Assembly (NCBI GenBank): GCA_038326655.1
Contig: JBBQKG010000017.1
Span: 948 to 64,947 of the forward strand
Length of the DNA stretch: 64,000 nt
Reading direction: 5' to 3'
DNA from: Solirubrobacterales bacterium
GTDB lineage: Bacteria > Actinomycetota > Thermoleophilia > Solirubrobacterales > JBBDJG01
Under the pieces are notes generated by a model. It was not told the origin of the DNA. It saw only the letters and a list, made by a program, of their open reading frames with translations, and did not search any database. The translations under genes and the position numbers were made by a program. Positions 61,503-64,000 of the stretch are shown here, piece after piece; positions within the stretch are counted from its first letter, which is position 1; each line of letters starts with the position of its first letter.

Positions 61503-62018
61503 ATGGAAGTAGGGCTTTTCATCATCCATTTGACGTTCGGCCTCTTGCTGGCAGGCCACGGCGCCCAGAAGCTCTTCGGCTGGTTCGGTGGACACGGCCC
61601 GGAGGTCACCGGCGGCTTCATGGAGTCACTCGGCATGCGCCCGGGTCGCCGCAACGCGCTTGCGGCCGGCACCTCCGAGTTCGTCGGGGGTGTCCTGCTC
61701 GCGCTCGCCCTCGCGACGCCGCTTGCCGCGGCCCTGATCGCGTCGACGATGCTCGTTGCGGCCCTCACCGCGCATAGGGGGAAGGGCCCGTGGGCGACGA
61801 ACGGCGGCTGGGAGTTGCCGCTGACCTATGCGGTCGTCGCGATCGGCCTCGCCTTCAATGGCGCCGGCCAGTGGTCGCTCGACAACGCGATCGGCTGGAA
61901 CGACGCCGGTTTCTGGTGGGGCGTCGGCGCCTCGGCGGTAGCGCTCCTGGGCGCGTTCGGCGCGATCACAGCCGGTCGCCGCGAGGCGCATCAGCCAGCC
62001 GCGGGCGCGCACGCGTAG
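61503..62018 (+). CDS. DoxX family membrane protein
   Basis: HGAQKLFGWFGG, EFVGG, GWE, GAGQWSLD. Confidence 0.92.
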   Translation: MEVGLFIIHLTFGLLLAGHGAQKLFGWFGGHGPEVTGGFMESLGMRPGRRNALAAGTSEFVGGVLLALALATPLAAALIASTMLVAALTAHRGKGPWATNGGWELPLTYAVVAIGLAFNGAGQWSLDNAIGWNDAGFWWGVGASAVALLGAFGAITAGRREAHQPAAGAHA

Positions 62019-62040
62019 GCGCCGCAACCGTCACGGAAAC

Positions 62041-62063
62041 GGGGGCGCCATTGCGGCGCCCCT
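62041..62063 (+). terminator. GC-rich hairpin after DoxX
   Basis: GGGGCGCC-ATTGC-GGCGCCCC. Confidence 0.5.
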
Positions 62064-62066
62064 CCT

Positions 62067-62265
62067 TCAATCCTCGATCGCCCGGATCTTCGTGATCCGG
62101 CCCCACCGCAGCTCGATCGTCTGAGCGACCTCGTTGCGGTAGGGCTCACCGAGCACCTTGGTCCGGACGTCGACGAGCGCGACCACGCGGGTGCGCCAAG
62201 GCCAACCCTTGACGAGCACGTCGGCGACCTCGAACCGGATCGCGGGGAACAGCTCGAACAGCGCC
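62067..62265 (-). pseudogene. Fragment of an NTF2/SnoaL-like gene
   Basis: LFELFPAIRFEVADVLVKGWPWRTRVV...PYRNEVAQTIELRWGRITKIRAIED-stop, with no N-terminal half. Confidence 0.65.
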
Positions 62266-62430
62266 GGCCCCGGCGGCAGGATCGGGCCCGGTACAGCGGT
62301 TGTGGGCGAGCTCCTGGCGGCCGGCTCGCGCCGGCTCGGCGCCCGCCGCTCGGCCCACGCTCGCGATTAGGAGTTTGACCCCCCTGCGCGCGGGTAGGGA
62401 GCCGTGTAGCGGGCGGCGAAAGGCTGCAGG

Positions 62431-63543
62431 GTGCGTGTAACACGGAGGTTCGTTTTACCCCTGACCATCATGGTGGTGGCAGTGTCTGCACCCCCGGCCG
62501 CCGTGGCGGCGCTGCCAGATGGCGCATCTGTTGCCGGCGTTGTCACGGACGTTGTGTCTCCGACGGCCGCGGGCGCAGAGAAGCTTCCTGCCCTCGAGAC
62601 GAGCAAGGCGGCAGTCGCATCGCCGACCTCGGCTCCCAGCATGTCCGACGGGTTGGCGAAGGCGTCGACGCCGGCCGCGCCGTCTTTGCCGTCCACGAAG
62701 GCGGTCGAGCAGGCCGTCGCGCCGGTCGTCGAGGCCGCCTCTTCGACGGTGGACAAGGTGCTCGCTCCCGCGACCGGCAAGTTGACGCAGGTGGACACGC
62801 CTTCCACCGTGCCGGTGGAGCAGATCGTTCGCCCGGTCGTCCACGAGGTCTCGTCGACCGTGGACAAGGTACTCGCGCCGGTGACCGGCAAGCTGCCGCC
62901 GGCTGACCCTCCGTCCACGGCCGGGCCCGTAGAGCAGATCGTCCAGCCGCTCCTCGACCAGGTCTCTGCGACGGGCCGCCCGCCCCTGAGGTCCACGGTC
63001 GCGCAGCCGGTCACCGGCCGGCCCGCTCCGGTGGGCGGACCCTCACCTGGATCGGCCGGTTCCTCCGGCCACGCACAGGCGGTGGCCGGGAACGGAAATG
63101 GCGGCACGCCGCCCGCCGGCCCCGGGGCCGGCACCGGTACCCCCGGCGCCACCCTGGCGACGGGCTCCGCTCCGGGCCAGGGGCCGGGCTTCTTCGCGTC
63201 CGGCGCCGTGAAGGGCGCACCTGCGGCAGCACAGGTCACGCACGGCCGGCACCTCGTTGCTGCCGGGCCGAGCCGGCTCGAGCGAATCCGAGCTGCCGCG
63301 ATGTCCCAGCTGGCGGACGCGGCAGCGACGGTCCGCGGGCAGGTCCCGCCGAACGCCCCGCCCGTCCCAGCGCCGGTGTCTTTCGGGGGCGCTTCCGCTC
63401 CCGCGCTGTTCGGATTTGGCATCGCTGCAGCCCTCGCGATGCTCGCTGCGGCGATGCGCATGAGCTTCACCGTCAGACGTCACCTGCGGCCTGTGCCGCT
63501 CCTCGTGGCGTGCTGCGTCTCGCCTCTCGAACAACCCGGCTAG
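62431..63543 (+). CDS. Pro/Ala-rich secreted, membrane-anchored putative leader (regulatory) protein
   Basis: Signal peptide, 37-aa internal repeats, TM PALFGFGIAAALAMLAAAM, ~29-aa tail ending SPLEQPG-stop. Confidence 0.7.
   Translation: MRVTRRFVLPLTIMVVAVSAPPAAVAALPDGASVAGVVTDVVSPTAAGAEKLPALETSKAAVASPTSAPSMSDGLAKASTPAAPSLPSTKAVEQAVAPVVEAASSTVDKVLAPATGKLTQVDTPSTVPVEQIVRPVVHEVSSTVDKVLAPVTGKLPPADPPSTAGPVEQIVQPLLDQVSATGRPPLRSTVAQPVTGRPAPVGGPSPGSAGSSGHAQAVAGNGNGGTPPAGPGAGTGTPGATLATGSAPGQGPGFFASGAVKGAPAAAQVTHGRHLVAAGPSRLERIRAAAMSQLADAAATVRGQVPPNAPPVPAPVSFGGASAPALFGFGIAAALAMLAAAMRMSFTVRRHLRPVPLLVACCVSPLEQPG
62680..62970 (+). repeat. 111-bp (37-aa) imperfect coding repeat, ~2.5 copies
   Basis: STVDKVLAP(A/V)TGKL at 62743 and 62854; PST..(P/A)VEQ x3. 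Confidence 0.8.
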
Positions 63544-63604
63544 CCCCAAGCGCAGTCGGGTGGCACCGGCTTCCGCCGGTGTTTCAAACGTTCGAGAAGG
63601 AGAT
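63517..63604 (+). promoter_or_regulatory. Predicted three-way RNA junction sequestering the downstream SD
   Basis: TCTCGAAC 63525-32 pairs with GTTCGAGA 63590-97 and extends into AGGAGAT; ACCCGGCT/AGTCGGGT; CACCGGC/GCCGGTG. Confidence 0.6.
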
Positions 63605-63609
63605 GATTC

Positions 63610-64000
63610 ATGAGAGTCAGAATCATGCTCTCGGCGGCCTGCCTGTTCGGCGTGCTGCTGGGAGTCGGGACAAGCACGATTTCCCCGGCGGCGGCGATCG
63701 CCGCCCGGCCGGAAGTGACCCCGCTGCTCACCGAGGGCACCGGCATGGGTGCGCGGCCAAGCGAGCGCGTCCGCACGCTCCAGCTGCGTCTGGGGGCCAA
63801 GGGCTACAAGCTCGGCTCATCGGGCGTCGACGGCCGGTTCGGCCCGATCACGCGGGGGGCCGTCCAGCGGCTGCAGGGTGACTACGGCCTGAGCCAGGAC
63901 GGCATCGCCGGCCCGAAGACGCGCAAGCTGCTGCGTGCGATCTGCGCTCGGCCCGCCTGTCGCTCACAGGCCGCTTCGCGAACGGCTGGTCCGCGGCGTC
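63610..64000 (+). CDS. Secreted peptidoglycan-binding domain protein, 3'-truncated by window edge
   Basis: AAGGAG SD 7 nt upstream; signal peptide; VRTLQLRL..GVDGRFGPIT.GAVQRLQ..DGIAGPKT. Confidence 0.88.
   Translation, partial: MRVRIMLSAACLFGVLLGVGTSTISPAAAIAARPEVTPLLTEGTGMGARPSERVRTLQLRLGAKGYKLGSSGVDGRFGPITRGAVQRLQGDYGLSQDGIAGPKTRKLLRAICARPACRSQAASRTAGPRR

Follow-up and report, generated by a model that had tools for sequence, protein, structure and literature searches.

A conserved C-terminal tail and an RNA junction before the next gene in Solirubrobacterales: a candidate translation-coupled switch

Can the end of a membrane-anchored protein control whether the ribosome reaches the next gene? 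The question is raised by a stretch of 64,000 nucleotides (nt) from a Solirubrobacterales bacterium (GenBank assembly GCA_038326655.1, contig JBBQKG010000017.1, positions 948 to 64,947 of the forward strand), which is referred to here, as a whole, as the window. Near its end lies an open reading frame (ORF), ORF A, whose stop codon is separated by 66 nt from the ATG of a second gene, ORF B. A first-pass annotation, made from the letters of the window, had proposed that ORF A is a secretion-monitoring leader. According to this proposal, a ribosome stalled or terminating at the Pro-Gly-stop end of its tail exposes the Shine-Dalgarno (SD) sequence of ORF B, a peptidoglycan-binding gene, and expression of the cell wall gene is coupled in this way to Sec/YidC activity.

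The answer reached here has parts of unequal strength. The tail of ORF A and the RNA junction behind it are, on sequence comparison, a conserved, unannotated and widespread multicopy module in Solirubrobacterales and Thermoleophilia. The tail, its spacing from the transmembrane (TM) segment, the junction and the adjacency of the two genes are conserved, and two helices of the junction, P1 and P3, covary. Dependence of ORF B on translation of ORF A, a pause at the stop codon and sensitivity to force are proposed beyond these features. The best combined explanation, a translation-coupled switch with slowed and force-sensitive termination, is regarded with some reserve as the likelier account. 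Of its parts, translation-dependent unmasking of the downstream SD is probable, while an arrest proper, acting at termination and sensitive to force, is put forward tentatively and falls short of an even chance. The widest form of the proposal is doubtful: that ERPG-stop is a new arrest class, carried in the tails of full-length hypervariable surface proteins 27 residues past their own TM and gating diverse genes through a junction RNA.

The proposed mechanism can be outlined as follows. ORF A and the spacer would act together as a conserved switch through which expression of the next gene is coupled to translation. In the free mRNA, the last codons of ORF A would pair with a TCGA box and the SD of ORF B, and the SD would be masked. 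This helix, P1, would close a three-way junction that contains P2, formed over the stop codon, and P3, rich in guanine and cytosine (GC). A ribosome standing on the Gly codon and the stop would cover the 5′ strand of P1 together with P2, and the SD would be free only during that stay. The nascent tail, of fixed length and ending in E-R-P-G-stop, may slow termination; membrane insertion or translocation of the ORF A product may in turn pull on the chain and shorten the pause. The output of ORF B would then report how the ORF A product is handled at the membrane.

It is the tail, and not the whole protein, that defines a family. At full length, ORF A gave no homologue among 60 relatives, no match when a word-indexed set of 5.8 billion proteins was searched (limited to 203-648 aa) and none by phmmer in 1.84 billion representative proteins; Pfam and NCBIfam yielded nothing meaningful for ORF A and five relatives. 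The ORFs that precede ORF B homologues in related genomes are dissimilar and Pro/Ala-rich, and each has a TM and a tail ending in LLERPG or ALNERPG directly before the stop. A search profile built on the C-terminal 55 residues matched 151 proteins at E ≤ 1 in the 5.8 billion, and the 120 listed have E ≤ 4e-6. RPG is the C-terminal end in all 120 of the matches listed. None of these 120 has a Pfam domain, all are named “hypothetical”, and the organisms named belong to Solirubrobacterales, Solirubrobacteraceae or Thermoleophilaceae; the relatives fall in Thermoleophilia. Genome tallies were made by scoring 16 first-look candidates per genome, so that the counts are lower bounds. In the order, at least 106 of the 401 genomes sampled contain a match to the profile, with copies per genome reaching at least six, and in the class at least 32 of 401 do. 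Among 401 genomes of the phylum, at least one clear member lies outside the class: L108 (G1060), which ends in ...VVISLRERPG-stop and is the sole out-of-class case among the matches scored there. Two unpublished genomes, G004 and G805, enter the tallies only, and no sequence-level claim rests on them.

Residue conservation was counted in 76 unique tails of 30 aa. An R-R-L-R-L stretch at positions -23 to -19 is mostly conserved, and it is followed by W at -14 (53/76), F at -9 (67/76), E at -4 (70/76) and R at -3 (75/76); P at -2 and G at -1 are present in every tail. The family motif, as read from these sequences, is [LI]-E-R-P-G-stop. The first-pass annotation had written it as [LI]E[RQ]PG and had expected it to be conserved in homologues; the ending and its conservation stood, and Gln at -3 proved exceptional. 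In an alignment of 18 sequences the last 27 columns are free of gaps. In 118 of the 120 listed proteins, the 18-residue stretch of highest hydrophobicity stops 26-29 residues before the C-terminus, and in 93 exactly at 27, in agreement with the fixed distance between TM and stop that had been predicted. From the N-terminal side, the C-terminal region is ordered as a Gly/Ser-rich stretch, the TM, a basic cluster, 18 further residues and ERPG. A heuristic scan finds an N-terminal hydrophobic segment in 80 of 92 database members of at least 250 aa. The tails use varied synonymous codons for Arg (CGA, CGG, CGC, CGT), Pro (CCC, CCT, CCG) and Gly (GGC, GGT, GGG), which points to selection on the peptide itself. 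The base at +4 after the stop is C in 26 of 39 loci vs 163 of 366 in the background. The largest subfamily, to which L037/L066 (G238), L101, L105 and most database hits belong, has the tail ...RRLRLSCQPWRTACFVLIPERPG, and its last 12 residues are common to 64 of the 120 listed proteins.

Several traits of the tail resemble those of arrest peptides: a length close to that of the ribosomal tunnel, conserved residues that are dispersed, near-invariant residues next to the stop and a linked structure that masks an SD. In E. coli force profiles, a TM helix at this distance starts to exert a pull on the nascent chain (PMC7886326). The match between the TM-to-stop geometry and this onset of pulling is suggestive and is not taken as evidence of stalling.

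At the RNA level, TCTCGAAC (63525-32), within the last codons of ORF A, is the perfect complement of GTTCGAGA (63590-97). The minimum free energy (MFE) structure of 63505-63625 has -54.1 kcal/mol (z = -3.96), a stability equalled by 1 of 200 shuffles. In this structure, P1 is formed by 63520-21 and 63523-32 paired with 63590-96, 63598-600 and 63602-03, the SD AAGGAG being included. The complementarity of the last codons to the SD region and the two enclosed hairpins, one of them over the Pro-Gly-stop codons, had been described by the first-pass annotation, and they are recovered here as P1, P2 and P3 (Table 1). A further hairpin at 63604-63625 is predicted to retain part of the SD opening cost once P1 is broken. 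A duplex energy of -21.5 kcal/mol or lower, as in the window, occurs in 73 of 366 (20%) crudely called adjacent same-strand gene pairs of this genome of 70% GC. The window's stem alone is not beyond chance, and the case therefore rests on comparison with relatives. An Rfam scan of seven loci at E ≤ 1 returned three weak matches, none overlapping the junction element.

In relatives, the three-way junction is the MFE structure in most of the 19 loci folded, and the 3′ strand of P1 adjoins or includes the SD in most loci. Covariation was assessed in 16 loci from two clades, aligned by sequence only with MAFFT, from which RNAalifold (RIBOSUM) derived P1, P2 and P3. In this set, where the structure comes from the same 16-sequence alignment and the relatives are not independent, 84.5% of paired cells can pair, as compared with 77.8 ± 0.7 in shuffles (0/500) and at most 43% when the partners are slid. 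Both sides have changed in 15 pairs (shuffles 9.0 ± 1.7; 0/500), and the covariation score is 0.247, against 0.154 in shuffles and at most 0.081 with slid partners; the stem conservation that had been anticipated is thus borne out. P3 contributes 5 of its 11 pairs with changes on both sides. The clearest covariation links the wobble position of the Glu codon with the base that precedes the TCGA box (AU in 9 loci, GC in 6, one break). A reading by hand of the boxes of all loci gives GAA with T in 13 and with C in 1, and GAG with C in 11 and with T in at least 4 (G-U pairs). In addition, cognate duplexes between tail and SD region average -18.8 kcal/mol, as compared with -15.1 ± 0.5 kcal/mol for permuted partners (0 of 20000 permutations; 32 dereplicated loci); a previous comparison of 18 loci had agreed. 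Partner tables from RNAduplex were dropped as a covariation test, since the program gives canonical pairs only. MAFFT and RNAalifold on 14 diverse loci returned no pairs because that alignment is not structural; the narrower set of 16 loci worked.

The effect of a terminating ribosome was modelled with Gly in the P site and 31 nt held unpaired. With the ribosome at the stop, 22 of 39 loci show a predicted fall in SD opening cost of at least 2.5 kcal/mol, and 15 show one of at least 4 kcal/mol; the corresponding shares among 249 control gene pairs, which are crude ORF and GC-frame calls, are 10% and 2.8%. The start codon of the downstream gene was set by hand in L023, L037, L074, L086, L101, L103 and the second copy of this genome (C29). 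Predicted unmasking is strongest where the downstream product is PG-binding/resolvase-like.

The gene behind the tail is a constant element in its position and a variable one in its type. In all 39 loci an ORF on the same strand, with an SD-like motif, begins 49-106 nt past the stop. The downstream types include PG-binding/resolvase-like proteins, Resolvase plus Recombinase proteins, STAS proteins and secreted proteins without a Pfam family. Most types were set by a simple regular expression, and Pfam checks cover the window, L009, L023, L024, L037 and the unknown secreted proteins. The products are mostly secreted or membrane proteins, as had been anticipated, and no Sec or YidC component was found among the genes typed, which agrees with the earlier view that the target is not a translocation gene. 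The difference between downstream families favours a cis role for the end of the tail over a protein contact between the tail and one specific partner. ORF B itself has a signal peptide, a PG_binding_1 domain (E = 8.5e-15), a TM helix and a C-terminal resolvase-like domain that is weak (E = 0.0025, short of the Pfam cutoff). The peptidoglycan-binding assignment of the first-pass annotation is retained on these grounds; the description as a plain cell wall gene is given up, given the resolvase-like domain and the other families elsewhere.

Other observations weigh against the combined explanation. By duplex energy, the window's stem is ordinary for its genome. Its predicted unmasking is modest: the SD opening cost would fall from 9.0 to 6.5 kcal/mol with the ribosome at the stop, a drop of 2.5 kcal/mol that stands at about the 90th percentile of the 249 control pairs. 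Unmasking of 2.5 kcal/mol or more is not predicted in 17 of the 39 loci, mainly those with a STAS or large unknown secreted product downstream. P1 has no clear excess of G-U pairs (13 G-U vs 19 A-C in the ungapped count, 17 vs 12 in the structural alignment), so that an inverted repeat at the DNA level is still compatible with that test; in P3 the structural alignment gives 23 G-U vs 5 A-C pairs. Stop codon usage shows no preference (TAG 19, TGA 12 and TAA 8 in 39 loci; background 152/171/43). Both copies of the family in this genome, ending in LEQPG and LELPG, are without the Arg at -3. Moreover, the proteins have 220 to more than 600 aa and reach at least six copies per genome. Such length and multiplicity are unlike those of known small leader peptides, and they would fit a structural family whose tail does its job in the mature protein.

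These points bear on the strongest alternative, which is plain translational coupling together with an unrelated tail motif. Under this explanation no pause occurs; initiation on ORF B depends, through the three-way junction, on ribosomes that unwind the end of ORF A, and this coupling sets the stoichiometry of the two products or places synthesis of the ORF B product at the membrane. The ERPG tail would owe its conservation to a cellular factor that recognizes free C-termini and binds, processes or degrades the cytoplasmic tail of the mature protein. Motif conservation that reaches the final residue is typical of signals read at the C-terminus, and the ERPG tails are conserved in this way. 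Stalling and the link to Sec/YidC activity are inferred steps, and plain coupling would cover the RNA part, SD masking and covariation alike, without any arrest. The length and copy number of the proteins, the lack of a stop codon preference and the apparent dispensability of Arg at -3 in the two copies of this genome all fit it. For a simple C-terminal tag, however, there would be no need for a TM spacing of 27 ± 1 residues, for conserved residues dispersed over about 23 aa or for a downstream gene at 49-106 nt in every locus. Pfam and NCBIfam have no matching sorting or tail domain, and the motif lies C-terminal to both the TM and the basic cluster, an order opposite to that of sortase and exosortase signals; a C-terminal sorting signal of the LPXTG/sortase or PEP-CTERM type was rejected on both grounds. 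On this evidence plain coupling is possible, although on balance unlikely as the whole account.

Another alternative concerns the window alone: its feature may be a decaying or non-functional copy of a real family module, with ORF B no longer regulated. Among the 76 unique tails, that of ORF A alone has Gln at -3 and alone has Cys at -9 (in place of Phe), and it appears by sequence to be the least canonical member of the family. A G-to-A change (CGA to CAA) breaks one P1 pair that is present in L042, and the predicted unmasking lies below the median of the relatives (2.8 kcal/mol, values up to 10). On the other side, the frame is intact, the TM spacing is kept, an 8-bp core of P1 is present together with both hairpins, and the stability of the fold stands out from its shuffles. 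The genome has a second family member, C29:1892-2884, which ends in PLELPG-TAG with Leu at -3. That this copy keeps PLE-x-PG suggests a lineage-specific variant and not decay. PG-stop endings occur in 24 of 2212 crude ORFs of this genome, two of them PLE-x-PG, too few for a depletion test. The window's copy may be a weak or decaying member; loss of regulation at this locus is considered rather unlikely. Behind the C29 copy, after 80 nt, stands a 768-aa secreted protein without a known family, preceded by a CAACTCGAAC box and the SD GGAGGA.

It is improbable that the role of the inverted repeat and the hairpins lies outside translation, be it as a 3′ stabilizer, a processing site, a partial terminator, an attenuator or a set of DNA sites for a recombinase-like ORF B product, with the SD overlap secondary: P3 is a strong GC-rich hairpin directly 3′ of the gene, P1 has no G-U over A-C excess in the ungapped count and many downstream genes encode resolvase-like domains, but P3 has no U tract, the + strand has no terminator-like site, no room for a promoter is left between P3 and the SD, the same architecture precedes STAS and unknown secreted genes without a recombinase, the 3′ strand of P1 abuts or includes the SD in most loci, and the G-U pairs of P3 fit a sense-strand RNA. 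In detail, P3 is followed by UUUCAAAC, with no U run, and an E. coli-type scan of 62000-64000 finds no intrinsic terminator-like site on the + strand; P3 was rejected as an intrinsic terminator for these reasons. The one terminator-like site in that range is on the minus strand, inside ORF A. P2, P3 and the 3′ strand of P1 fill the spacer, which leaves no promoter room after P3. A scan of 62000-64000 gave no promoter-like site, with an E. coli-type model that is uninformative on promoters of this organism.

The coupled switch with slowed termination would have consequences of more than one kind. If the tail stalls termination, a class of actinobacteria that has barely been studied would have supplied a new arrest motif, and nascent-chain monitoring would reach beyond small leaders and beyond Sec/YidC genes. 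The tail would then be a natural force sensor, with its TM placed about where E. coli force profiles put the onset of pulling. Each surface protein would report its own membrane insertion as its ribosome reaches the stop, and the gated genes would include PG-binding, membrane-tethered serine-recombinase-like proteins as well as STAS regulators. Even without stalling, what remains is an unannotated protein family that is recognizable only by its last 30 or so residues, with at least 120 database clusters and a place in at least 106 of 401 genomes of the order, and a conserved cis-regulatory RNA junction without an Rfam match in the seven loci scanned.

The features of the window are collected in Table 1. 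The ORF A product, with its signal peptide, Pro/Ala/Gly body, TM and tail ending in VSPLEQPG-TAG, lies exactly where the first-pass annotation had put it. Its N-terminal hydrophobic 15-mer has a mean Kyte-Doolittle (KD) hydropathy of 2.17 in a heuristic scan, which is no dedicated predictor. Upstream of the tail, the P+A+G+S+T fraction is 0.60, and the repeat unit is of 37 aa (VEQ.V.PVV.E.SSTVDKVLAP.TGKL...), with 77% matches. The hydrophobic segment of 18 residues ends 28 aa short of the C-terminus, at about -46 to -29, and the final five codons are CTC GAA CAA CCC GGC (63526-63540).

Table 1. Positions of the features of ORF A, the RNA junction and ORF B in the window.
Feature	Position (strand)	Description	Basis
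ORF A	62431..63543 (+)	370 aa, Pro/Ala/Gly-rich, C-terminally anchored, “ERPG-stop tail” family	coding frame, tail alignment
Predicted signal peptide of ORF A, MRVTRRFVLPLTIMVVAVSAPPAAVAA	62431..62511 (+)	boundary approximate	translation, hydropathy
Tandem repeat within variable body of ORF A	62702..62942 (+)	111 nt, 2.1 copies	
TM segment ALFGFGIAAALAMLAAAM of ORF A	63403..63456 (+)	residues 325-342	hydropathy, aligned with relatives' TM
Cytoplasmic tail RMSFTVRRHLRPVPLLVACCVSPLEQPG of ORF A	63457..63540 (+)	28 aa, sole part of ORF A kept in relatives	
P1 5′ strand (anti-SD)	63520..63532 (+)	codons -8 to -3 of ORF A	MFE, family-wide
P2 hairpin over Pro-Gly-stop codons	63534..63561 (+)	63534-44 paired with 63552-61	MFE, relatives
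Stop codon TAG of ORF A	63541..63543 (+)	within hairpin P2	
P3 GC-rich hairpin	63562..63583 (+)	63562-70 with 63575-83, 9 pairs, loop UUCC	MFE
P1 3′ strand GTTCGAGAAGGAGA	63590..63603 (+)	conserved TCGA box and SD AAGGAG (63597-63602) of ORF B	
Small hairpin around ATG of ORF B	63604..63625 (+)	window-specific	MFE
ORF B start	63610..64000 (+) (L001:2680-3888)	402 aa in contig	SD AAGGAG, ATG 63610

A minus-strand ORF of 367 aa (62367-63470) overlaps ORF A almost entirely. GC by codon position is 0.74/0.63/0.81 for ORF A (+) vs 0.63/0.73/0.82 for this ORF, a pattern that identifies the + strand as coding and the 367-aa frame as the shadow frame of a high-GC gene. A short minus-strand ORF at 62067-62219 (MLVKGWPWRTRVVALVDVRTKVLGEPYRNEVAQTIELRWGRITKIRAIED) resembles by eye the C-terminal half of a SnoaL/NTF2-like protein, and the gene upstream of ORF A may be truncated or frameshifted.

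Among the downstream proteins, one set (window, L009, L023 and L024) combines a PG_binding_1 domain on the extracytoplasmic side, a TM and, in the cytoplasm, a serine-recombinase-like domain; in some members a Recombinase domain is present in addition. Tethering of a recombinase-like protein to the membrane is unusual. In ORF B, IGYVG-EP stands at what we take to be the place of the catalytic-serine motif of resolvases. The L009 version is a plain cytoplasmic Resolvase plus Recombinase protein. The L037 tail gene is followed by a STAS-domain protein, and its anti-SD lies directly 3′ of the stop (TAGCTCCTTCC paired with GGAAGGAGCT) and not in the last codons. Behind canonical tails, the downstream frames of L004 (G009; 214 aa, then a second frame) and L086 (G451; 45 aa) look broken, which may reflect a frameshift, a pseudogene or an assembly error. 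A metagenome scan with the C-terminal domain of ORF B gave four loci, with no ORF of at least 90 aa ending in [EQDN][RQ]PG.

The nearest known systems are SecM-secA, MifM-yidC2 and VemP-secDF2, which combine a targeting signal, a C-terminal stretch of about tunnel length and a sequestered SD downstream. ORF A resembles them in its N-terminal targeting signal (a hydrophobic segment found heuristically), in a conserved peptide stretch of about tunnel length at its C-terminus and in a downstream SD within a structure that, in silico, a ribosome at the end of the leader could open. It differs in that the genes behind ERPG tails are not Sec/YidC components, the ORF A family is hypervariable, multicopy and of 220 to more than 600 aa, the conserved stretch follows, at a constant distance, directly on the TM anchor of the same protein, and the putative pause would fall at the stop codon and not during elongation. 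SD-sequestering stem-loops lie downstream of arrest peptides also in the main text of a survey of such peptides (PMC10987492).

RAPP-type arrest peptides (ApcA RAPG, ApdA/ApdP RAPP, SecM RAGP) share with the ERPG tails an Arg, Gln in the window, three residues from the end, followed by Pro/Gly, and in both the motif lies near the C-terminus of secretory or membrane proteins. The RQH/RAPP-like motif is given in the same main text as (R/Q/H)-(A/G/D)-(P/G/S)-(P/G), with R, Q or H tolerated at the first position (PMC10987492). E-R-P-G-stop, with Pro at position 2 and the stop at position 4, does not fit this pattern and is not placed in the RAPP-like family, as the first-pass annotation had already held for RAPP/RAGP. 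Genes of diverse function lie downstream of proteins that carry RAPP-like motifs, according to the abstract of a second paper, of 2025 (PMC12992588). No description of an ERPG-stop motif was found in the literature searched, the supplementary tables of candidate motifs lying outside the search. The terms “RPG”, “Thermoleophil” and “Solirubrobacter” are absent from the main texts of PMC10987492 and PMC12992588; the supplements, not covered, may bear on novelty.

A further parallel is offered by arrest that depends on the stop codon itself. The ERPG positions -1 to -4 are nearly invariant and directly precede the stop, as in peptides of the NSP-stop type; the motif and the phylum are different, and stalling at ERPG-stop is putative. 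TnaC is a further stop-codon-dependent arrest peptide. In uA_NSP-stop, uDF_NAP-stop as well as uDF_DGMK-stop, as the main text of the survey reports, stalling, with the A site occupied by the stop codon, requires the conserved residues -1 to -4, and these peptides stand upstream of secA or secDF (Fujiwara 2024; PMC10987492).

On the RNA side, the ERPG loci resemble coupling of the type seen at a phage operon: the distal SD is paired with the proximal coding sequence, the pairing is supported by covariation, and it would be opened by ribosomes translating there. The classical case of translational coupling by SD occlusion is the coat-replicase pair of phage MS2. Unlike coupling of that type, the ERPG loci use for this pairing the last codons of a tail that is conserved as a peptide, and the helix closes a three-way junction that spans the stop codon.

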